Shown here: in pieces, positions 3,597 through 14,343 of the stretch
How the letters are laid out: every line of letters begins with the position of its first letter
Position numbering within the stretch: the stretch's first letter is position 1
From: Chloroflexota bacterium
GTDB taxonomy: Bacteria > Chloroflexota > Dehalococcoidia > E44-bin15
DNA: 49,968 nt
Reading direction: 5' to 3'
NCBI GenBank assembly: GCA_030626475.1
Contig: DAOUOW010000004.1
Coordinates: 1-49,968 of the forward strand
Notes under the pieces: generated by a model
Database searches by the model: none
Seen by the model: only the letters and a program-made list of their open reading frames with translations
What the model was told of the DNA's origin: nothing
Made by a program: the position numbers and the translations under genes

Positions 3597-4592
3597 GTGA
3601 AAAAAGAGCTGCTCGACCTTCTGGCCTGCCCCGAGTGCGGCTCGGTGGAGCTGGTGCTGAACCATTCTGCCGAGGAATCCCTGACTTGCGCCCGCTGTAA
3701 CGCTTGCTATCCTGTCCGCAACGGCATACCACAGATGTTGCCCAACCCACTGGCTACCAGCCTCCAGCTCACAGAGACCTATAGGGAGAAATTGAGGGCT
3801 TCCATACTCCAGGGCGAAGCTGAAGCGAGGCCCGAACCGCCCAATCCAGAGGTCGACCGCTTCATGTGGGAGCAGGAGCTCTACTGCTGGGGCAAAGAGG
3901 TCATCTATAAGGATTCCAAGGCGGCAGAGATATTTTCTTCCTATTCAGAGCAGGGGGCGAGACGGCTGTGCCAGTTCATTATCGCCAGGGCGAACGGCGT
4001 TCAAGGCAAGAGCCTGCTTTATGTGGGCAGCGGGAACGACCGCCTGGTGACGCTTCCCCTGGAGGAGGAGGGAGCCTTTGTGGTGAACCTCGATATTGCC
4101 CCAGAGCCCCTTGAGGACCTGATGCAGGCAGGAGCAAAAAGCTGCGTCTGCGGCGATGCCCGCCGGCTCCCCTTCCGCGCCGATGCCTTCGATGTGGTAT
4201 TCTCCAAGGGCTCCATCCACCATTCCCACCCCATAGACCAGCCCCTGCGCGCAATGGCCCGGGTGGCGAAGAGCGGGGGGCATATCATCGTTGCCGAGCC
4301 GGGCAAACACGTGCTCTCCCGCCCTCCCCGTGTGCTCTCGCCTTCTGGCTTGGGATACCCGACACCCTATGAGGACGCCATCTCAACCCGCGAGGTGATC
4401 GACATCCTGAATAACGAGGGCATCTCACAGCTTGAGGTGGCAGCCCTTACCCACGCCCCTCCCGGGGTTACGCCATTGATAGCCCGCCTGTGGGAGAGCC
4501 TGGGCAAGGCCATGCCCTGGCTTTTTCGCCGCTTTGCCTTCGAGTTCATCGTTTATGGGCGAAAAGGGGGGCCGACCCGTGCTATACTATAA
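3597..4592 (+). CDS. Trm112-like Zn-ribbon fused to a class I SAM-dependent methyltransferase
   Basis: LLDLLACPECG...LTCARC...YPVRNGIPQML; LLYVGSG, CGDARRLPFRADAFDVV, RVAKSGG. Confidence 0.8.
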   Translation: MKKELLDLLACPECGSVELVLNHSAEESLTCARCNACYPVRNGIPQMLPNPLATSLQLTETYREKLRASILQGEAEARPEPPNPEVDRFMWEQELYCWGKEVIYKDSKAAEIFSSYSEQGARRLCQFIIARANGVQGKSLLYVGSGNDRLVTLPLEEEGAFVVNLDIAPEPLEDLMQAGAKSCVCGDARRLPFRADAFDVVFSKGSIHHSHPIDQPLRAMARVAKSGGHIIVAEPGKHVLSRPPRVLSPSGLGYPTPYEDAISTREVIDILNNEGISQLEVAALTHAPPGVTPLIARLWESLGKAMPWLFRRFAFEFIVYGRKGGPTRAIL

Positions 4593-4601
4593 GGGGGTAT
4601 T

Positions 4602-5090
4602 ATGGAGACCTTTGTCTATGTGATTTTATCTCTGGTCATCGTTGGTCTGCTGGCAATCGTCCTTGCTCTGACGCTGAGGCCGAGGCGGGTTGAGCTTCCC
4701 GATATCGAAGGCTTGGCGGAGAAGCTGCGCTTCGCCCTGGCATCCGAGGCCTCGGTGAGGGAGATACAGGATATGCTGAGAAGCCTGCCCCACGATGTCC
4801 TGGAGTCGATAACCAGGAGCCTGGGCAAGAGGACGGGGCGGCTCAACGAGCTGCTGGCAACCTTCGAGCTGACCCAGTATGACCGCCTCTTCTATCTGGG
4901 GGAGCCTATCGACTTCGTCGGCATCAAGTATGATGAGGGGGTGGACTTCATCGAGGTCAAGACGGGCAAATTCCGCCTCAGCGCCGACGAAATGAAGCTC
5001 AGGGAGCTAATCGAAGCGGGGAAGGTGAACTACGTGCCCCTCACCGTGGAGAAGATAGGCATCGTGGAAGAGGTGGACACGGGGGAGTAG
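4602..5090 (+). CDS. Membrane-anchored PD-(D/E)xK endonuclease related to archaeal Holliday junction resolvase (Endonuc_Holl-like)
   Basis: N-terminal TM helix; FYLGEPIDFV, FIEVKTG, LSADEMKLRELIEAGKV. Confidence 0.75.
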   Translation: METFVYVILSLVIVGLLAIVLALTLRPRRVELPDIEGLAEKLRFALASEASVREIQDMLRSLPHDVLESITRSLGKRTGRLNELLATFELTQYDRLFYLGEPIDFVGIKYDEGVDFIEVKTGKFRLSADEMKLRELIEAGKVNYVPLTVEKIGIVEEVDTGE

Positions 5091-5133
5091 GGGAACGGTG
5101 GGCTTGGGCGCCTGCTACGCTAGCTTGGGCTGA

Positions 5134-6153
5134 TCATGACAGGGAAAGTCCTGTCAAATCAGCGAAATCGTTAATGGCCTTTTGCAACTCTTGCAGCTTT
5201 TTGATCCTAGCCGAGTCGCCATCTCGAACAGCGCGGATTTCACTTGCTGGCGCGTCGTGAAGCTTCTCGATAGTGCGGTCTATGGATTTGTAAAGGACAG
5301 CACCTAGCTCTGGTTGACCCTCAGTAAGCACATGCCACGCTACGTCATATCCGCTTTCTTCCAGGGCGGCGAGGGCTTCGGGGTTGGCTACAATTTTGGG
5401 GAGGTCACGCACCTGAACGCCCTTACTCAGCTTGCCATCCCTTACCCACCGCACAAACCTGTCCTCCCAAGGCCCAGCAGCTTCTTTCTTTTTGAAGGCC
5501 TTGTAGAACTCCTCGAAGTAGGACCACTTGTAGACGTCCTTACGGTCCGTCGAATCCTTCAAGAATTGTTCTTTCATGAGTTGGTAGGCCCACAACCGCT
5601 TGTTTACCCAGGCCTTGTTCTTGCGCAGGTGCTGAGAGAGATCTTCTACCGTGTAGCTGTAGTCATGAGCCATCCCGTACAAATACGCTGCCTGTTCGTA
5701 AGCGTCCCATTCAATCTTCCCAGCCACATGAAGCTCACCGAGGATATAGGCGATTTCCCTCTCGGTGATGTCCTCAGGCAAAGTACTGGCCGGGATTTTT
5801 GCCCATCGCTCATCTTCCTCATCCTGGTATAGCTTCCTATAGACCACAGTGCGGCAGTTACCCTCAGCTATTGTTCCATCGGCTCTGACGATAATACGCT
5901 CCAAGAGCCCCTGGTTCTGTTTGATGGAGTGGTAAAGCTGTTTGACATCATCTTCATGCCAAAGCTTTTCCGCAATCTCTTCCTCTGTAAGCTCGCGCCC
6001 CAAGAGGGAGAGAATGAACTGGACACGCTGGTTCCTCGGGTCGAGGTGCACCTCGTATATGGGAAGGTTAGTGTACTGTAACCTGACGATCCTGCCCGCC
6101 ACTGTGATCTCCTCAACCATAGTGACAGCTTCTGCTCGCTCCATAGAACTCAT
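5134..6153 (-). CDS. ParB/Srx-like N-terminal domain protein
   Basis: LDPRNQRV, SIKQNQGLLERIIV, IAEGNCR, LHVAGKIEWDAYEQA; ATG 6153 follows GGAGGTG. Confidence 0.75.
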   Translation of the reverse strand: MSSMERAEAVTMVEEITVAGRIVRLQYTNLPIYEVHLDPRNQRVQFILSLLGRELTEEEIAEKLWHEDDVKQLYHSIKQNQGLLERIIVRADGTIAEGNCRTVVYRKLYQDEEDERWAKIPASTLPEDITEREIAYILGELHVAGKIEWDAYEQAAYLYGMAHDYSYTVEDLSQHLRKNKAWVNKRLWAYQLMKEQFLKDSTDRKDVYKWSYFEEFYKAFKKKEAAGPWEDRFVRWVRDGKLSKGVQVRDLPKIVANPEALAALEESGYDVAWHVLTEGQPELGAVLYKSIDRTIEKLHDAPASEIRAVRDGDSARIKKLQELQKAINDFADLTGLSLS

Positions 6154-6225
6154 TATTTTCACCTCCTATAGAATTTTTGCAGCGAGCAAGCGCCCAAATT
6201 CCCACTGCTTCAGTTGTTAAAGTGC

Positions 6226-6408
6226 TTAGGGTTTGCCAGCTACAAAGCTAGCGAACTCACCTCGCGGCATCTGCCGGATGAGCCTATCGATTTCCTCCAG
6301 AGTTTCGATCTCAGGAAAGCGCAGGCCTGGCTCCCAACCTGGCGGCATCAAGCTCCGGAGATAATCCTTTTCCCGCTCAGTTTTCAAAAGGTCCCAAAAT
6401 CGAAACAT
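6226..6408 (-). CDS. Small hypothetical protein (60 aa) upstream of the ParB-like gene
   Basis: ATG with GAGG/AAGG upstream; lies between a minus-strand promoter and the ParB-like gene. Confidence 0.55.
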   Translation of the reverse strand: MFRFWDLLKTEREKDYLRSLMPPGWEPGLRFPEIETLEEIDRLIRQMPRGEFASFVAGKP

Positions 6409-6428
6409 ACCTTCGTCCTCGCTGTACT

Positions 6429-6522
6429 ACATTATCACACTCCATCCATTTTGTCAAGTTTTTTTAAAAAAAGATGCAAAAGATAACCATGTATTGACAA
6501 AAGATAAAGTTTGAGTTATAAT
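6429..6522. promoter_or_regulatory. Back-to-back sigma70 promoters with CAAAAGATAA direct repeats
   Basis: Plus strand: TTGACA (6494)-17-TATAAT (6517). Minus strand: TTGACA (6457-6452)-17-TAATGT. CAAAAGATAA at 6477-6486 and 6498-6507. Confidence 0.75.
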
Positions 6523-6557
6523 TCAAAATAAGATTTTAAGTTTAGCTTTATTTTGCC

Positions 6558-6803
6558 ATGGATACCGGAGAGCTGGTCAGTGCCTTAGGGGTTTCATTTC
6601 CCCGCCAGGAACTGTATTATTTAGAGTCCCAGGGGTTTTTGCGTCCTCAGAAGCGCCGAGTGGGAAAGACCTTGAAGCGGGACTGGCCTGCGGAAATCAT
6701 CCCAACGCTAAGAGTATATTGGGAACTCCGTGAACAGGGATTCCCGCCCAGAGTGGCGTGGGAAAAGGCAGAAATTCCTGCTCTCCCTGAGAAGGAGGAT
6801 TAG
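6558..6803 (+). CDS. MerR-like helix-turn-helix protein
   Basis: TGELVSALGVS...LYYLESQGFLRP..R pattern; stop 2 nt before the next gene. Confidence 0.65.
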   Translation: MDTGELVSALGVSFPRQELYYLESQGFLRPQKRRVGKTLKRDWPAEIIPTLRVYWELREQGFPPRVAWEKAEIPALPEKED

Positions 6804-6805
6804 CT

Positions 6806-7942
6806 ATGCATGTGCTGCTAGTGGAGCCTCCCTACTACACACGTTACCCGCCACTAGGCTTACTGAAGCTGGCCACCTACCATAAAATGCTTGGCGACAC
6901 GGTGGAACACATCAGGGGCTACGCACCCGCTGAGCGTCAGCCTGATCGGATTTATGTAACGAGCCTGTTCACTTATGCATGGCGCCCAGTACATCAGGCA
7001 GTCGCATTCTGCAAAGCTCTGTACCCTCAGGCGCCAATTACACTTGGGGGTATCTACGCCACGCTAATGCGTGACCATGCAGAGCGTTCTGGCGCTGAAG
7101 TTTTTACAGGCCTCAGCATGGACATTGAGCAGCTATTGCCTGATTACTCTTTAGTACCTCAATTTGACACAAGCCTCCTATTTTCATCAAGAGGTTGCAT
7201 TAGGCGGTGCCCCTTCTGCGCCGCCCCTATCCTTGAGCCATTCGACCCCGGCGAAACGGGCCTCAAAAGCATAAGCCATCTCATAGAGCCTAGCTTCAGA
7301 AAAGTAGTGTTCTGGGACAATAATTTCCTCGCTAACCCTCACTGTCGCGACATAGTCGGGGAGCTCAAAGAAAGAGGCCTGGAAGTAGACTTCAACCAAG
7401 GGATTGATGCTAGGCTTATCACTGAAGCAGTCGCAAGGGAGTTCCAAGGCCTGAAGCTTCAGCCGATCCGAATGGCATACGATACCCCAAGCCAGAAGGC
7501 ACCGCTGGAAAGGGCGGCCTCTCTGCTTGCAGAAGCGGGCTTCGACAGGCGAAGGATGCTCATCTACCTGATGTACAATTATGAGGATACCCCGGAAGAG
7601 TTCCTCGGAAGATTGCGTGAGGTACTCGATTTGGGTCTGGTGGCCTACCCTATGCGATATGAGCCAATCGGTGCCTATGATGCAGAGGGCAATCCCCTGA
7701 GCAAGAATTCATTCATATCAGAGTATTGGAGCGCTGAGCAATTGGAGATGTTGGCAAGAGCGCGTAGAGTGATAGGCTATGGGGGCGCCTTTCCCCCTTA
7801 TGAGGGCCTTAAAAAGAAGATAGGTAACGCTAGGACATTTGAAGAGGCGTTTGCACTAAGGGAACCGTCACGAACCAAATTGCGACAAGAGCTAAGGAAA
7901 GTTCTGGGTTCAAAGGTGCCCCGCCTCCCCCTGATGCCCTGA
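6806..7942 (+). CDS. Radical SAM protein with a B12-binding-like N-terminal domain
   Basis: LLVEP...YPPLGLLKLATYHK, ITLGGIYATL, SRGCIRRCPFC, WDNNF, VDFNQGIDARL. Confidence 0.85.
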   Translation: MHVLLVEPPYYTRYPPLGLLKLATYHKMLGDTVEHIRGYAPAERQPDRIYVTSLFTYAWRPVHQAVAFCKALYPQAPITLGGIYATLMRDHAERSGAEVFTGLSMDIEQLLPDYSLVPQFDTSLLFSSRGCIRRCPFCAAPILEPFDPGETGLKSISHLIEPSFRKVVFWDNNFLANPHCRDIVGELKERGLEVDFNQGIDARLITEAVAREFQGLKLQPIRMAYDTPSQKAPLERAASLLAEAGFDRRRMLIYLMYNYEDTPEEFLGRLREVLDLGLVAYPMRYEPIGAYDAEGNPLSKNSFISEYWSAEQLEMLARARRVIGYGGAFPPYEGLKKKIGNARTFEEAFALREPSRTKLRQELRKVLGSKVPRLPLMP

Positions 7943-8007
7943 GGCTATAAGACACAGCCTCCATTTGTTTCCACGACCGTGCTATACTATTTATAGAGTA
8001 GTTCGCC

Positions 8008-9975
8008 ATGCCCAACTTCAAGATCGTCTCAGATTTCGGGCCTACCGGGGACCAGCCCCAGGCGGTGGATAAGCTGGTTGAGGGGCTTGAGCGCGGCTTT
8101 AAGCACCAGACCCTCCTCGGCGTCACCGGCAGCGGCAAGACCTTCACCATGGCCAACATCATCGAGAGGGTAAACCACCCCACCCTGGTCATGTCCCACA
8201 ACAAGACCCTCGCCGCACAGCTCGCCACCGAGCTAAAGGAGTTCTTCCCCGATAACGCCGTGGAATACTTCGTCAGCTACTACGACTACTACCAGCCAGA
8301 GGCATATATCCCCCGCACCGATACCTACATCGAGAAGGAGACCGATATCAACGAGGAGATCGATAAGATGCGCCACGCCTCGACCAGGGCGCTGTTCACC
8401 AGGAGGGATGTCATCATCGTGGCCTCGGTCTCGTGCATCTATGGTCTCGGCTCCCCCGAGGAGTACCACGCCTTCGTGGTCAGCCTCCAGAAGGGCGAGA
8501 TGCGGAAGCGGGACAGGATCGTGCGCCAGCTTGTGGACATGCAGTACGAGAGAAACGACATCGACTTCACCAGGGGCCGCTTCCGCATCAGGGGCGATAC
8601 CCTGGAGATTCAGCCCGCCTACGAGGAGGTGGCGGTGAGGGTGGAGTTCTTTGGCGATGAGATCGAGCGCATCGTGGAGGTCGACCCCCTGACCGGCGAG
8701 CTTCTGGCGGAGAGGGAATCCATAGACATCTATCCGGCAAAGCACTTCGTAACCTCCCACGATAAGCTCATCGCCGCCATCGTTGACATCGAGGAGGAGC
8801 TTGAGCACAGGCTGAAGGAGTTCAAGGCACAGGGGAAGCTCCTTGAGGCGGCCAGGCTTGAGGCCAGGACCAACTACGATATCGAGATGCTGCGTGAGGC
8901 GGGATTTTGCGCCGGTGTGGAAAACTACTCCCGCCACCTGTCACGGAGAGCGCCGGGGAGCCCGCCGTGGACGCTGCTCGACTACTTCCCCGAAGACTTC
9001 CTCGTGTTCGTCGATGAGTCCCACATGACGCTGCCCCAGGTGCGAGGGATGTATCACGGCGACCGCTCGCGAAAGGAGACCCTAGTGGAGTACGGGTTTC
9101 GCCTGCCATCGGCGCTGGACAACCGCCCGCTCAACTTCTCCGAGTTCGAGGAGCACGTAGACCAGGCAATATATGTCTCGGCAACCCCAGGCCCCTATGA
9201 ATATGAGCACAGCGAGCAGATAGCGGAGCAACTCATCAGGCCCACGGGGCTACTGGAGCCCTCAATCGAGGTCAAGCCCACCGGGGGCCAGATCGATGAC
9301 CTTATGGAGCAGATAAAGAAGCGCGTTGAGCGGGGGGAGCGCTGCCTGGTGACCACCATGACCAAGAGGATGGCTGAGGAGCTTGCCGATTACCTCAAGG
9401 AAATGGGAACAAAGACCCACTACCTCCACTCCGAGATCGACACCCTGGAGCGGGTGGAGATATTGCGCGACCTCAGGCTGGGGGTCTACGATGTGGTTGT
9501 GGGCATCAATTTGCTTCGCGAGGGGCTTGACCTTCCCGAGGTGAGCCTGGTCGCCATCCTCGACGCTGATAAGGAAGGCTTTCTCAGGTCGCGCGACTCA
9601 TTGATCCAGACCATGGGCCGTGCCACCCGCCACGTCGATGGACAGGCGATCATGTACGCCGACACCATCACCGGCTCGATGCAGGCCGCCATCGATGAGG
9701 TGCTGCGCCGCCGCAATATCCAGACGGCCTATAACCAGGCGCATGGCATCACCCCTCAGGGGATCAAAAAGGCAATCAAGGACATCACCGACCGGGTGCG
9801 GGTGGTGGCCGAGACCCGCGCCCCCTACACCGTTGCCCCCCTTCCCAAGGATGAGATGCTGCGCCTGATCAAGGACCTGGAATCGCAGATGAAGACAGCG
9901 GCGAGGAACCTTGAGTTCGAGAAGGCAGCCCTGCTCAGAGACCGCATCATCGAGCTGAGAAGGGATATGGAATAA
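8008..9975 (+). CDS. uvrB: Excinuclease ABC subunit B
   Basis: [45 protein letters not shown]-terminal UVR domain. Confidence 0.99.
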
Positions 9976-9976
9976 G

Positions 9977-11290
9977 TTGAAGATATCCATTATTTCTACA
10001 AACCGGGAGCAATTCCCCCAGGTCGCCATCCCCATCGGTCCCGCCTGCATTGCAGCGGCACTGAGGGAGCAGGGACACCAGGTCGAGATCCTCGACCTCT
10101 GCTTTGAACCAAAGATAGAGGAAGCGGTCATCACCCACCTGGAAAGGTATGCCCCAGAACTGGTCGGCATCTCCCTGCGGAACACAGAAAACAATGAACT
10201 CTTTCACTGCCTCTCCTATCTCGAGGATACCAAGAGCATCGTGGAAACAGTCAAAAAGCATAGCCAGGCAGAGATAGTCATCGGGGGCGCCGCCTTCGCC
10301 CTTTCCCCCGAGGAGCTCATGAGATACCTTGAGCTGCCCTACGGGATTGCCGGAGATGGTGAAACTGCCTTCCCGCTCTTCATCCGATATCTTCAAGGCG
10401 AAGGGGAGCTGGGCTCCATTCCCGGAATTTGCTATTGGGGCGACAAGAAGGTGGTAGTAAGCCCCGCAGCCAAGATCAGGGATTTTGCCCGGTTGCCCTT
10501 CCCCGCCTATGACCTCCTGGACCTTCAGCGGTATCTGGCTGCGGTCCCCGCCCTTCCAATAGAGGGCAAGAGGGGCTGCGACCTGGCTTGCTCCTTCTGC
10601 CCCGATGGAGCCGACAAGGAGGGATGCCGGCCGAGAGCCCCCAAGCTGGTGGTTGATGAAATGGAGTTCATGGCAAAAGAGCACGGTATCCGGAGATTCT
10701 TTTTCACCGATGGCGTGTTCAACTTCCCCCCAGACCATGCCCTGGCAATATGCCGGGAACTCAGAGAAAGAAAGCTCGACGTAAGATGGGCGGCAGATAT
10801 TAACCCGGTGGCCGTTTCCCAGGCACTGGTTGCCGCTATGAAAGAGACAGGTTGCCGAAACATCGCCCTCGGCATTGACACCGCCTCAGCAAAGATGCTC
10901 CGGGGCTACCGCAAGGGCTTTGACAAGGAGGCCATCGTCAGAGCAGCCAAACTACTCACCGATGCCGATATTCGCTTCGCCTACTGGATCCTTTTCGGCG
11001 GCCCTGGAGAAAACATGGACACCGCCCAGGAGACCATTGATTTTCTTCAAGACGTGCCCCAGCCGGTCTTCTTTCGCGCCGGGATCAGGGTCTTCAAAGG
11101 CACCGAGCTGGAGAGGCAGGCAAGAGAGGAAGGGGTGCTCCCAGAGAACCACGATATGCTCTCGACAACCTTCTACCTCTCCAAAGACCTGGGGGAAGAC
11201 TTCGCGGAGTGGCTGGACAGGCAATGTGAGCCCCATGAGAACTGGTTTACCATCACCAAACTGGCGAGGCTAGGGTTGGTGCCCCCCTGA
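9977..11290 (+). CDS. B12-binding domain / radical SAM protein
   Basis: PIGPACIAAAL..GHQVEILD, VIGG, KRGCDLACSFC, FFTDGVFN; TTG start right after uvrB. Confidence 0.85.
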   Translation: MKISIISTNREQFPQVAIPIGPACIAAALREQGHQVEILDLCFEPKIEEAVITHLERYAPELVGISLRNTENNELFHCLSYLEDTKSIVETVKKHSQAEIVIGGAAFALSPEELMRYLELPYGIAGDGETAFPLFIRYLQGEGELGSIPGICYWGDKKVVVSPAAKIRDFARLPFPAYDLLDLQRYLAAVPALPIEGKRGCDLACSFCPDGADKEGCRPRAPKLVVDEMEFMAKEHGIRRFFFTDGVFNFPPDHALAICRELRERKLDVRWAADINPVAVSQALVAAMKETGCRNIALGIDTASAKMLRGYRKGFDKEAIVRAAKLLTDADIRFAYWILFGGPGENMDTAQETIDFLQDVPQPVFFRAGIRVFKGTELERQAREEGVLPENHDMLSTTFYLSKDLGEDFAEWLDRQCEPHENWFTITKLARLGLVPP

Positions 11291-11314
11291 AACGACCTCA
11301 TTCAGCGTTAGCGG

Positions 11315-11343
11315 TTGACACCACATCTGCAGAATGCTAGTCT
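11315..11343 (+). promoter_or_regulatory. Sigma70-type promoter for the beta-propeller triplet
   Basis: TTGACA-17-TAGTCT with extended TG. Confidence 0.6.
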
Positions 11344-11381
11344 CTTGCTACCTGCTCGGCCAAGAAATGAAGAGGTGATGT

Positions 11382-12260
11382 ATGCAAGCTAAAGCAATTG
11401 TGACGGTCATCCTTTTGTGCATCGTTGCATTGTCAGGTTTTGCCTGCTGCGGAGGCGGCGGAGAAGAGGAGAAGATCGCCTTTGCCTCCGACCGCGACGG
11501 CGACTATGAGGTCTACGTGATGGACGCTGACGGCTCCAACCAGACCAGGCTCACCAACAACCCCGCTACCGACGTGTACCCCACGTGGTCGCCGGACGGG
11601 AGCAAGATCGCGTTCTACTCCAACCGTGACGACAACTATGACGTCTATGTGATGGACGCCGATGGCTCCAACCAGACCAACCTCACCAGCAACCCGGCTT
11701 CCGATGGGTTTCCGTCATGGTCGCCGGACGGAAGCATGATCGCCTTTGTCTCTAACCGTGACGACAATGATGAAATCTACGTGATGGACGCCGACGGCTC
11801 CGACCAGACTCGCCTCACCAGCAATCCGGCTCGCGATTGGGGCCCCTCATGGGCACCAGACGGAAGAAAGGTCGCCTTTTGCTCGTTCCGTGACGGCAAC
11901 CCTGAGATCTACGTCATGGACGCCGATGGCTCCAACCAGACTCGCCTCACCAGCAACAACGCTACCGACGTGCACCCCGTGTGGTCGCCGGACGGGAGCA
12001 GGATCGCGTTCTACTCCGACCGTGACGGCAACTTTGAAATCTACGCCATGGACGGCGACGGCTCTAACCAGACTCGCCTTACCACCAATCCTCCGGCTCG
12101 CGATTGGAGCCCATCATGGTCGCCAGACGGAAGCAGAATCGCCTTCGTCTCTGACCGTGACGGCAACCCTGAAATCTACGTGATGGACACCGACGGCTCC
12201 AACCAGACCAACCTTACCAATAACCCGGCTGACGATGACATGCCATCGTGGTCGCCATAG
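11382..12260 (+). CDS. TolB-like PD40 beta-propeller lipoprotein, 6 repeats
   Basis: Signal peptide with SGFAC lipobox; ~44-aa repeats [42 protein letters not shown]. Confidence 0.85.
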
Positions 12261-13354
12261 GCTGCGGGGGAGCAATGAGGAGGTGATGTGTGCCAGCTAG
12301 AGCAATTGCCACGGTCATCCTTTTGTGCACCGTTGCGTTGTCAGGTTTTGCCTGCGGAGGCGGCGGAGAAGAGGAAGCGGCGCCAGCAAAGGGTGAGCTC
12401 GCCTTTGTCTCTGACCGCGACGGCAACTATGACATCTACGTGATGAACGGCGACGGCTCCAACCAGACCCGCCTCACCAACAACCCGGCTTGGGATGAAG
12501 ACCCATCGTGGTCGCCGGATGGAAGCAAGATCGCCTTTACCTCTAGGCGCGACGGCAACTCCGAGATCTACGTGATGGACGCCGACGGCTCTAACCAGAC
12601 TCGCCTCATCAACAATCCGGCCCCAGATTGGGGCCCATTCTGGTCGCCAGATGGGAGCAGGATCGCCTTTATCTCTGGCCGTGACGGCAACTGGGAAGTC
12701 TACGTGATGGACGCCAATGGCTCCAACCAGACCAACCTCACCAACAACCCGGCTCGGGATACGGCACCCTCGTGGTCGCCGGACGGGAGCAGGATCGCCT
12801 TCCAATCTTTCCGTGACGGCAACCGGGAGGTCTACGTGGTGGAGGCCGACGGCTCCAACCTGACCCGCCTCACCAATAACCCGGCTTGCGACTGGGGCCC
12901 ACCATCCTGGTCGCCGGACGGGAGCAGGATCGCCTTTTACTCGATCCGTGACGGCGACAAGGAAATCTATGTGATGGACGCCGACGGCTCCAACCAGACC
13001 AACCTCACTAACAACCCTACTGGCGATTGGCTCCCATCCTGGTCGCCAGCCGGGAGTAAGATCGCCTTTGTCTCTACCCGTGACGCTAACTTTGAGATTT
13101 GCGTGATCGATGCCGACGGCTCCAACCAGACTCGCCTCACCAGCAATCCGGCTGGGGATGAGGAGCCCTCGTGGTCACCAGACGGGAGCATGATCGCCTT
13201 CCAATCTGACCGTGACGGCAACCTTGAGATCTACGTGATGGACAGCGACGGCTCCAACCTGACCCGCCTCACCAACAACCCGGCTGATGATTGGGACGCC
13301 TCGTGGTCGCCATAGGCTGCGGGGGAGCAATGAGGAGGTGATGTGTGCCAGCTA
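12246..13354 (+). repeat. 54-bp identical gene-junction direct repeat (12246-12299 and 13301-13354)
   Basis: TCGTGGTCGCCATAGGCTGCGGGGGAGCAATGAGGAGGTGATGTGTGCCAGCTA occurs twice; TAGGCTGCG recurs at 14341. Confidence 0.9.
12290..13315 (+). CDS. TolB-like PD40 beta-propeller lipoprotein, 7 repeats
   Basis: Same architecture; GTG start after GAGGAGGTG. Confidence 0.85.
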
Positions 13355-14343
13355 AAGCAATTGCCACGGTCATCCTCTTGTGCACTGTTGCGTTGTCAGG
13401 TTTTGCCTGCTGCGGCGGCGGAGCGTCACCACAGGGTAATATCGTCTTTGTCTCTTACCGTGACGGCAACCCTGAGGTCTACACTATGCAGGCCGACGGC
13501 TCCAACCAGATCAACCTCACCAACAACCCGCTTAGCGATTTGATCCCATCATGGTCGCCGGATGGCACCAAGATCGCCTTCCAAACTAGCCGTGATGGCC
13601 AGTCTGAAATCTACGTCATGGACACCGACGGCTCCAACCCAACCAACCTCACCAGAAACCCGGCCAGGGAGTTTCAGCTATCGTGGTCGCCGGACGGGAG
13701 CAGGATTGCCTTTGTCTCCAACCGTGATGGCAATGATGAAATCTACGTGATGGACGCCGATGGCTCCAACCAGACCAACCTCACCAACAACCCGGCTTAC
13801 GATGGATCACCGTCGTGGTCGCCGGACGGGAGCAGGATCGCCTTTGTCTCCAAGCGTGACGGCAACTCGGAGGTCTACGTGGTGGACGACGACGGCTCTG
13901 ACCAGACCAACCTCACCAACAACCCGGCCAGCGATTTGACCCCCTCATGGTCACCGGACGACAGCAAGATCGCCTTCCACTCCGACCGTGATGGCAACTT
14001 TGAAATCTACGTGATGGACGCCGACGGCTCCAACCCAACCAACCTCACCAACAACCCGGCTAGCGAAGCATCCCCCTCTTGGTCACCAGATGGGAGCAGG
14101 ATTGCCTTCCTCTCTCTGAATGAAATCTACGTGATGGACGGCGACGGCTCTAACCAGACCAACCTCACCAACAGCCCAGGCAGGGAGTTTCAGCCATCGT
14201 GGTCGCCGGACGGGAGCAGGATCGCCTTTGTCTCTGAGCGTGATGGCAACGCTGAAATCTACGTGATGGACGCCGATGGCTCCAACCCAACCAACCTCAC
14301 CAACAACCCGGCTGACGATCGGCACCCCTTGTGGTCGCCCTAG
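13345..14343 (+). CDS. TolB-like PD40 beta-propeller lipoprotein, 7 repeats
   Basis: Same architecture; one repeat lacks the RDG loop (AFLSLNEIY). Confidence 0.85.
   Translation: MPAKAIATVILLCTVALSGFACCGGGASPQGNIVFVSYRDGNPEVYTMQADGSNQINLTNNPLSDLIPSWSPDGTKIAFQTSRDGQSEIYVMDTDGSNPTNLTRNPAREFQLSWSPDGSRIAFVSNRDGNDEIYVMDADGSNQTNLTNNPAYDGSPSWSPDGSRIAFVSKRDGNSEVYVVDDDGSDQTNLTNNPASDLTPSWSPDDSKIAFHSDRDGNFEIYVMDADGSNPTNLTNNPASEASPSWSPDGSRIAFLSLNEIYVMDGDGSNQTNLTNSPGREFQPSWSPDGSRIAFVSERDGNAEIYVMDADGSNPTNLTNNPADDRHPLWSP

Follow-up and report, generated by a model that had tools for sequence, protein, structure and literature searches.

What is the function of a ParB-like protein encoded divergently from a radical S-adenosylmethionine (SAM) enzyme, in a small cassette located just before uvrB? 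The cassette occupies positions 5134–7942 of a 49 968-nt stretch of Chloroflexota DNA (contig DAOUOW010000004.1; this whole stretch is called the window below), and an initial annotation, made from the letters alone, had put it forward as a candidate for a new, self-contained system of DNA modification or defence. The reading that we favour, though only as an even bet, is that it constitutes a radical-SAM DNA-modification module provided with an activator or loader of the ParB superfamily, and that it represents the minimal form of a widespread defence-associated family. It is favoured because of (i) the pairing of the enzyme with ParB-like proteins, (ii) the wiring of its relatives to restriction-type machines, (iii) their occurrence in phage DNA modules, (iv) fusion to a DNA methyltransferase, (v) the location of the cassette in a defence hotspot and (vi) published precedents.

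Co-occurrence with ParB-like and restriction-type genes

The two large proteins of the cassette come from families that are both large and without a name, and whose members are found together. For the radical SAM enzyme, a profile search covering 1.84 billion cluster representatives (50% identity clusters) found 4836 relatives at E ≤ 1e-3, 2412 at 1e-10 and 591 at 1e-30; among 8000 candidates that were scored, 2398 were relatives at E ≤ 1e-3. Members were found in bacteria, archaea and viruses. The ParB-like family numbers 441 relatives at E ≤ 1e-3 among 6712 candidates scored. Gene neighbourhoods were then compared in 239 loci (designated L plus a number), made up of 80 ParB-anchored metagenome loci, 80 species-genome loci anchored on the radical SAM gene and 79 viral loci. 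The radical SAM gene was present in 45 of the 80 ParB-anchored loci; in 27 of these loci the ParB block has 3.5 kb or more of flank on each side, and of these 23 carry the gene, while the other four end in a GHKL gene of the type that usually adjoins it. The nearest ParB-like relatives (44–63% identity) pair one-to-one with the enzyme, in divergent or convergent orientation. A larger layout, seen in 53 of the 80 ParB-anchored loci, consists of GHKL, radical SAM and DndB/DpdB-like genes, divergent from three tandem ParB-like paralogues followed by a ~145-aa protein and an SNF2 helicase.

Among the 80 genome loci anchored on the radical SAM gene, a recognised partner class was found within 5 kb in 63, namely GHKL (23 loci), DndB-like (20), ParB-like (19), SNF2 (13), PbeA (12), HerA-like (8) or a type IIG enzyme (4), these classes overlapping within a locus. 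With PADLOC, the partners scored 8e-229 for PbeA and 5e-132 for PbeC, and the type IIG enzyme gave a bit score of 1177; the DndB-like partner matches Pfam DndB at 1.7e-18 and PADLOC DpdB at 2.6e-12 to 2.1e-14, and the SNF2 partner is of the ZorD/DpdE kind according to PADLOC. The hosts are diverse: Dehalococcoidia, Acidobacteriota, Omnitrophota, Planctomycetota, Bacillota, Bathyarchaeia, methanogens and others.

The co-occurrence of the two large proteins, on which the initial annotation had made its proposal depend, is borne out by the 23 of 27 fully flanked loci. Its suggestion of a new system stands in so far as no named system matches: no PADLOC system model and no NCBIfam model covers the radical SAM enzyme, the NCBIfam scan returning only sub-threshold noise. 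The cassette is not a one-off, however, and appears as the minimal form of a much larger modular family.

Additional genes were noted in some related loci. An extra and more canonical ParB_N (+HTH_ParB) gene is present in L093 (1412–3276), L096 (3102–4922) and L097 (5677–7044), and a ~275-aa protein without family in L093 and L096; the window has neither of these genes and may thus hold a reduced version. A conserved protein of 136–145 aa, without Pfam or PADLOC match, lies between the ParB-like paralogues and SNF2 (L013, L060, L157 and others), and this ~140-aa gene accompanies the multi-ParB/SNF2 forms in 11 of the 80 genome loci and 51 of the 80 metagenome loci.

Phage relatives and fusion to C5-cytosine methyltransferases

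Viral contigs contain at least 508 confirmed relatives of the radical SAM enzyme (from at least 566 pattern matches), and the window enzyme matches phrog_9298, a 'radical SAM domain protein', from end to end (3.8e-65). The neighbours in the 79 viral loci kept are SSB, Erf, NinB, DnaB-helicase and terminase genes, and a phage protein with a ParB-like nuclease domain is found in 25 of these loci. The copy of Marinitoga camini virus 1 (48.6% identical) adjoins HerA and a NurA-type nuclease; that of a Bacteroides LoVEphage lies near PAPS reductase and Dam genes.

Fusions were searched for in 17 unusually long or off-centre members, chosen from the 150 best cluster representatives of the radical SAM family. 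In five of them (P0277, P0365, P0378, P0312 and P0325) a C5-cytosine DNA methyltransferase (PF00145) is fused before or after the radical SAM part, and over 339 residues the radical SAM half of P0277, which retains every family motif, shares 36% identity with the window enzyme. A Dcm-like gene also lies near the radical SAM gene in 10 of the 239 loci (7 viral and 3 genomic), at a distance of at most 13 bp in four loci. Judged from these associations, the family appears to be linked with polymer DNA and with the marking of self against non-self. The earlier proposal that the radical SAM enzyme modifies DNA or nucleotides gains support, as regards DNA, from the Dcm fusions, the phage DNA-metabolism modules and the DndB/DpdB, PbeABCD, type IIG and HerA–NurA partners, which make DNA the probable substrate.

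As a separate observation, five others of the 17 members (P0270, P0286, P0294, P0304 and P0290) carry intein, LAGLIDADG or HNH (homing-endonuclease) inserts inside the radical SAM gene.

Fold and motifs of the radical SAM enzyme

In Pfam the enzyme scores below the cut-off for both of its domains (Radical_SAM PF04055, 6.6e-4 and 20.3 bits, with 29.5 needed; B12-binding, 5e-3 and 17.1 bits, with a cut-off of 32.1). A model was obtained with AlphaFold2 (AF2; mean predicted local distance difference test, pLDDT, 87.6) and aligned to solved structures with VIA-align. The best match was AprD4 (Z 25.1 over 332 residues, root-mean-square deviation 3.2), followed by TsrM (Z 22.4), MgmA (21.6), MtaB/MiaB (about 20), then CysS and OxsB; residues 1–106 alone match corrinoid-binding proteins with Z 10–12. 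The predicted structure settles the two-domain fold, a Rossmann domain followed by a partial TIM-barrel radical SAM core. All 180 distinct family sequences have, without variation, the cluster motif C131-x3-C135-x2-C138 and the two family-specific motifs, D171-N-N and D195-F-N-Q-G-x-D-x-R. A MiaB-like methylthiotransferase was considered and rejected, there being no conserved N-domain cysteines among the family-wide invariants. A sequence-profile search of the PDB with the family alignment (A1) gave no match at E ≤ 0.01, and a fold search of BFVD returned only generic phage radical SAM or COG1032 proteins.

A quick, unrooted FastTree of 192 sequences separates three groups: a short cellular clade that includes the window enzyme, a phage clade of ~300-aa proteins and a long cellular clade. 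The partner types switch repeatedly within these groups.

The ParB-like protein

The 342-aa partner gives a weak match to ParB_N in Pfam (E 0.022, under the cut-off). Its AF2 model (pLDDT 90) was compared with known structures using Foldseek, which returned Noc (7ol9, 2.4e-6), ParB in complex with cytidine diphosphate (ParB–CDP, 7bnk), KorB (8qa9) and the N-domain plus helix-turn-helix (HTH) of pNOB8 ParB, with probability 1.0 and E values of 2e-6 to 1e-4 for the Noc, ParB and KorB matches. On this prediction, the presence of a ParB N-domain and HTH fold is settled.

In partition-type ParB proteins, the arginine motif for binding of cytidine triphosphate has the consensus GERR. The window protein has EGNCR (E100–R104) in its place, as the initial annotation had noticed, and this motif is invariant in a 26-row alignment of the close family (A2). 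That part of the observation holds; the cysteine, on the other hand, varies, the corresponding column of a wider alignment (A5) showing EGNRR or EGNSR in paralogues and DGQHR or DCQHR in DndB-like proteins. A catalytic role for the cysteine was consequently rejected, since paralogues have R or S at its position. Because EGNCR falls in the DGQHR column, the window protein and DndB/DpdB are related branches of a superfamily and not the same family; no DndB or DpdB match to the window protein was obtained with Pfam or PADLOC. As to a ParABS partition protein, neither the GERR motif in the protein nor a ParA-like gene among the window neighbours was found.

Two other matches were recorded. PADLOC PDC-M38A aligns partially (residues 72–223 with positions 60–224 of a 715-position profile, E 7.8e-8), and a text search of the literature found no paper naming PDC-M38. 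In the NCBIfam scan, the Sta1 family of regulators was matched weakly and below threshold (E 0.022).

Acquisition of the cassette in a defence hotspot

The cassette comes from a metagenome-assembled genome (MAG) of 1.12 Mb and 68% completeness, and 40 relatives (designated G plus a number) were searched for the cassette genes. The ParB-like gene was found in none of the 40 and a radical SAM gene of the same family (40% identity) in two; the remaining eight radical SAM matches are weak (E 1e-4 to 1e-6) and are to other radical SAM enzymes. In blastn comparisons, homology to G001, G003 and G004 stops at window positions 5086–5095 and returns at 7992–8007. Between these limits the relatives have 1.5–3.2 kb of DNA unrelated to the cassette, and the genes on either side are kept (80–91% nucleotide identity for the Endonuc_Holl-like gene, 88–90% for uvrB). 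The slot contains a 496-aa GHKL (HATPase_c_3) ATPase in G001, the closest relative and of the same genus (L179, 4740–6230), GmrSD_N together with a RiboL-PSP HEPN protein in G004, and, in G003, genes for a DpnII endonuclease, a DNA methylase and a Na/Ca exchanger. Judged from these comparisons, the cassette is horizontally acquired and is located in a defence hotspot. These data uphold the initial annotation on three counts: the module was acquired horizontally (it lies in a slot that is variable between core genes), it is not core in relatives, and its neighbourhood is one of defence, since three relatives have different defence genes in the slot.

No integrase, transposase, parA or convincing terminal repeat was found at the window cassette. 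Att-like sites or terminal repeats at the edges of the insert were rejected, the candidates being short two-copy matches of a chance-like kind. The absence of an adjacent parA or integrase, as noted initially, was confirmed with Pfam, the nearest genes being a methyltransferase, Endonuc_Holl and uvrB. The Endonuc_Holl gene, for its part, was rejected as a member of the cassette in view of its conservation in relatives, and so was placed outside the insert, together with the methyltransferase fusion upstream of it, which is also kept. It may be noted that the GHKL ATPase of the G001 slot is of the same class as the commonest partner of the radical SAM gene elsewhere.

Proposed mechanism

We propose that the 378-aa enzyme would bind a [4Fe-4S] cluster through C131, C135 and C138, cleave SAM and make a radical-initiated change on DNA, for which the favoured target would be pyrimidine C5 or the 5-methyl group; cobalamin, as an agent of methyl transfer, may be bound in the N-terminal Rossmann domain. 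The ParB/Srx + HTH protein would be its obligate DNA-handling partner, most plausibly a loader or activator dependent on nucleoside triphosphates (NTPs) and presenting double-stranded DNA, in the way that DpdB serves DpdA and a phage ParB serves 5mYOX176; a role as reader of, or nuclease for, unmarked DNA seems less likely. The 81-aa protein encoded directly upstream of the enzyme would probably autoregulate the radical SAM operon from its consensus promoter. In the larger relatives, which connect this core to restriction-type machines, the mark would mean 'self', and in phages it would serve anti-restriction. Gene content, folds, conservation, co-occurrence, hotspot position and fusions are results of the analysis itself; for the clade of the window enzyme, DNA is the presumed substrate, and the chemistry, the ParB role, the regulation and a defence phenotype are presumed likewise.

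A more specific proposal, which is tentative and somewhat doubtful, is that the B12-like radical SAM enzyme is the oxygen-independent radical counterpart of the TET/JBP enzymes (5mYOX): with a ParB activator, it would act on pyrimidine C5 or 5-methyl groups in double-stranded DNA (5-methylcytosine, 5mC, in the forms fused or adjacent to Dcm; thymine or cytosine in window-like forms) and so produce an undescribed base, used as a self or anti-restriction mark in anaerobic bacteria, archaea and phages and feeding PbeABCD, type IIG, HerA–NurA and GHKL/SNF2 modules.

Several observations weigh against a DNA-modification module. The closest solved structures (AprD4, TsrM, MgmA and MiaB) are of enzymes whose substrates are small molecules, proteins or tRNA, and no solved DNA-acting radical SAM enzyme is among the top structural matches. 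To our knowledge AprD4, the top match, has a B12-type domain but does not use cobalamin, and cobalamin binding is not a property that can be told from sequence. Across the family, EGNCR does not keep its cysteine. The cassette is without an obvious nuclease or helicase, so that the restriction half of restriction–modification (R-M) logic is missing here, and 17 of the 80 genome loci anchored on the radical SAM gene have no recognised partner. Finally, a Dcm-like neighbour occurs in none of the 80 ParB-anchored loci, fusion and adjacency being confined to other clades, and no PF00145 gene was seen in the host MAG at its 68% completeness. Because of these last two points, 5mC is unlikely as the substrate of the window enzyme, which would point to thymine, cytosine or something else.

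Alternative explanations

The alternative that survives best, although we consider it unlikely, is that of an effector: the enzyme would make a toxic or chain-terminating nucleotide, or deplete one, and the ParB-like protein would sense invading DNA and turn the enzyme on, phage replication being blocked and host DNA left unmarked. Prokaryotic viperins are radical SAM enzymes acting in defence, and viperin structures do align with the core of the window enzyme (Z 10.6–11.0); they align to this core only, with scores well under those of the two-domain enzymes, and no PADLOC model, viperins included, matches the enzyme, which was therefore not identified as a pVip. In favour of this reading, a self-contained effector would account for the small size of a cassette without nuclease, and ParB-superfamily proteins bind NTPs (ParB–CDP structures were among the matches). 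A radical SAM enzyme of another kind, Ophion, is reported to act in defence (bioRxiv 10.1101/2025.09.30.679545). Yet phages have members of the family within their own modules for replication and modification, which would be odd for an anti-replication toxin; the forms fused to an entire C5-cytosine DNA methyltransferase point to polymer DNA and not to free nucleotides; and the PbeABCD and type IIG partners suit a marking role better.

It is more improbable still that the substrate is not DNA, the enzyme modifying a protein, tRNA or small molecule, with the ParB-like and 81-aa proteins as mere transcriptional regulators of an accessory metabolic gene. The top structural matches are indeed all non-DNA enzymes, and a regulatory role could be read into the HTH of the ParB-like protein, its weak Sta1 match and the report of DndB as a transcriptional regulator (PMC10853773). 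However, the conserved neighbours across the 239 loci are DNA-directed NTPases, nucleases and methylases and not metabolic genes; the Dcm fusions and the defence hotspot location argue in the same direction, and the one to three ParB paralogues per radical SAM gene are too many for a simple regulator.

Maintenance of a mobile element, in which the ParB-like protein would serve partition, silencing or addiction of a small island with the radical SAM gene as cargo, is very improbable: it would fit the ParB fold, the horizontal acquisition of the cassette and the presence, beside close one-to-one relatives, of IS1595 transposases (L017, L018, L030 and L180, next to the radical SAM gene) and an integrase (L099; R-M genes adjoin the pair in L102), but there is no parA, integrase, transposase or terminal repeat in or beside the window cassette, EGNCR replaces the partition-type GERR, and the radical SAM/ParB pair is kept across bacteria, archaea and viruses regardless of mobile context.

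Comparison with known systems

A DNA-modification module with a ParB-superfamily activator has one precedent in Dpd, which like the cassette combines a DNA-modifying enzyme (the transglycosylase DpdA) with a ParB-superfamily protein (the ParB-like ATPase DpdB); the ATPase activity of DpdB is required for DpdA action on DNA, as stated in PMC10164549. The larger relatives of the cassette have a DndB-like partner that matches the DpdB model over nearly its full length (2.1e-14) and an SNF2 partner that matches DpdE, the SNF2 protein of the Dpd restriction part, and ZorD. Unlike Dpd, the cassette has no TGT-like DpdA or preQ0 pathway; its enzyme is a radical SAM protein and its ParB-like protein misses the DpdB and DndB models.

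A second precedent is provided by a phage ParB homologue that activates the thymine dioxygenase 5mYOX on double-stranded DNA; according to PMC13229309, this TET/JBP-like protein is a post-replicative base-modifying enzyme that needs its cognate ParB. The radical SAM family is similarly common in phages and is linked to C5-pyrimidine chemistry through the Dcm fusions. The two differ in that 5mYOX is an Fe(II)/2-oxoglutarate enzyme dependent on O2, whereas the cassette enzyme would be an oxygen-sensitive [4Fe-4S]/SAM one, and in that the window ParB-like protein keeps an HTH, whereas the ParBs associated with 5mYOX are, again according to PMC13229309, without obvious DNA-binding domain.

Likeness to the phosphorothioation systems with DndB, Dnd and DndCDEA–PbeABCD, is found in 12 of the 80 genome loci, where the radical SAM gene, usually with a DndB-like DGQHR protein, adjoins PbeA, PbeC and PbeD, that is, where DndCDEA normally supplies the mark; the alignment of EGNCR with the DGQHR column is a further likeness. 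In contrast to these systems, the window has no DndA, C, D, E or Pbe genes and nothing points to sulfur chemistry; DndACDE, DpdA and PbeABCD were all absent from 5134–7942 and its neighbours in Pfam and PADLOC searches.

With regard to the enzyme itself, class B (cobalamin-dependent) radical SAM enzymes and B12-domain relatives (TsrM, MgmA, CysS, TokK, OxsB and AprD4) have the same two-domain fold. The window enzyme differs from them in being shorter (378 aa), in having its own DNN and DFNQGxDxR motifs and a DNA-centred context, and in having no solved relative by sequence profile. The radical SAM isomerase gp53 of phage M6 was, according to the authors of PMC8989533, the first radical SAM enzyme shown to install a DNA modification. 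Acting in thymidine hypermodification, gp53 resembles what is proposed for the cassette, a radical SAM enzyme working on a base in polymer DNA; unlike the cassette enzyme, it is similar to spore photoproduct lyase (SPL), is without a B12-like domain and belongs to a 5-hydroxymethyldeoxyuridine/aGPT-Pplase pathway, which is absent here.

On these grounds we class the cassette among the conflict systems that are based on modification and include an accessory protein of the ParB superfamily. No description of a system of ParB-like and B12-like radical SAM proteins, or of a radical SAM–Dcm fusion, was found in the full-text literature, a scope that leaves out supplements and subscription journals, so that an earlier mention in a supplement, such as that of a comparative-genomics paper, is possible. 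If the proposed reading is correct, it would provide a second, structurally unrelated class of DNA-acting radical SAM enzymes, far more widespread than the single case of phage M6, and would extend an emerging rule by which ParB-superfamily proteins (DpdB, DndB and the 5mYOX-associated ParB) are helpers of DNA-modifying enzymes. It would also supply a biochemical partner for 'orphan' PbeABCD, HerA–NurA and GHKL/SNF2 modules that have no known marking enzyme, and undescribed DNA marks carried by anaerobes and gut phages would affect sequencing, cloning and the prediction of phage–host pairs. Should the chemistry prove to be radical functionalisation of DNA pyrimidines, the system could be categorically new. 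Being the smallest version (<3 kb), the four-gene form of the window is a convenient construct for finding the modification.

Organization of the cassette and its surroundings

The features of the cassette and the adjoining genes are summarized in Table 1. The open reading frame (ORF) listing agrees with the arrangement described in the initial annotation, with two divergent units of two genes each on either side of an AT-rich region, before uvrB. The GC content of the cassette is 0.50–0.55, compared with 0.57–0.64 for the flanks, and dips to 0.43–0.44 across 6201–6800.

Table 1. Coordinates of the cassette features and of neighbouring genes in the window
Feature	Position	Strand	Basis
ParB/Srx-superfamily protein, 342 aa: N-terminal ParB-like domain with EGNCR, HTH, helical C-terminal domain	5134–6162	-	ORF, AF2 model, Foldseek
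Conserved 60-aa protein, no assigned function; upstream of the ParB-like gene, in the same direction	6226–6408	-	Same-position ORFs in L093, L094, L095
AT-rich divergent control region, 149 bp	6409–6557	.	GC ~0.43
Direct repeat CAAAAGATAA, 10 nt, putative operator	6477–6486 and 6498–6507		
Consensus sigma-70 promoter (TTGACA-17-TATAAT)	6494–6522	+	12/12 positions
Conserved 81-aa protein, directly upstream of the radical SAM gene	6558–6803	+	Same-position ORFs in L093–L097
Radical SAM enzyme, 378 aa: B12-binding-like Rossmann domain + radical SAM core	6806–7942	+	AF2 model, family motifs
Variable inserted segment between Endonuc_Holl-like gene and uvrB	5096–7991	.	blastn against G001, G003, G004
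Trm112p-like zinc-ribbon/class I methyltransferase fusion	3597–4592	+	
Endonuc_Holl (archaeal Holliday-junction-resolvase-like)	4602–5090	+	
uvrB	start 8008		Pfam UvrB_inter 1.7e-33
Second B12-binding radical SAM gene	9977–11290	+	Pfam Radical_SAM 1.3e-20, B12-binding 1.1e-17
Three tandem paralogous genes (292, 341 and 332 aa)	11382–14343	+	

Both small ORFs are real genes, to judge from their being kept in related loci at the same position beside their large neighbour: the identity is 49–63% in three loci for the 60-aa ORF and 46–73% in five loci for the 81-aa ORF, whose stop is followed after 2 nt by the start of the radical SAM gene. The 60-aa protein gave no match in Pfam (even at E 10), PADLOC, NCBIfam or PHROG scans. 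For the 81-aa protein, Pfam was likewise blank at E 10 and a profile search of the PDB had eS25 as its best match, with E > 0.3. Its nearest clusters in a language-model comparison (Atlas) carry MerR_1 (score 0.93, 193 shared features), which is a lead only; it is possibly a small MerR-like DNA-binding regulator. The 'HTH' label that it had been given initially was not confirmed, MerR_1 appearing only among these language-model neighbours.

The promoter lies in front of the 81-aa ORF and agrees with the consensus at every position, promoter-like sites occurring on average 1.9 times in shuffles of the whole 3.1-kb region. The second copy of the direct repeat overlaps its -35 box.

Downstream, the second B12-binding radical SAM gene begins one base after uvrB. 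Its product is distinct from the cassette enzyme (25% identity over 171 residues), as the initial annotation had claimed; since it is kept together with uvrB in G001 (88.6% nucleotide identity over 7992–12257), it belongs to the core and is unrelated to the cassette. The three tandem paralogous genes that follow are made of a 132-nt (44-aa) repeat, of which there are 14 copies over 11468–13311 and 6.6 copies over 13457–14312. G001 and G003 have the array as well, and its 44-aa unit may correspond to a TolB-type PD40 beta-propeller repeat, which it resembles.

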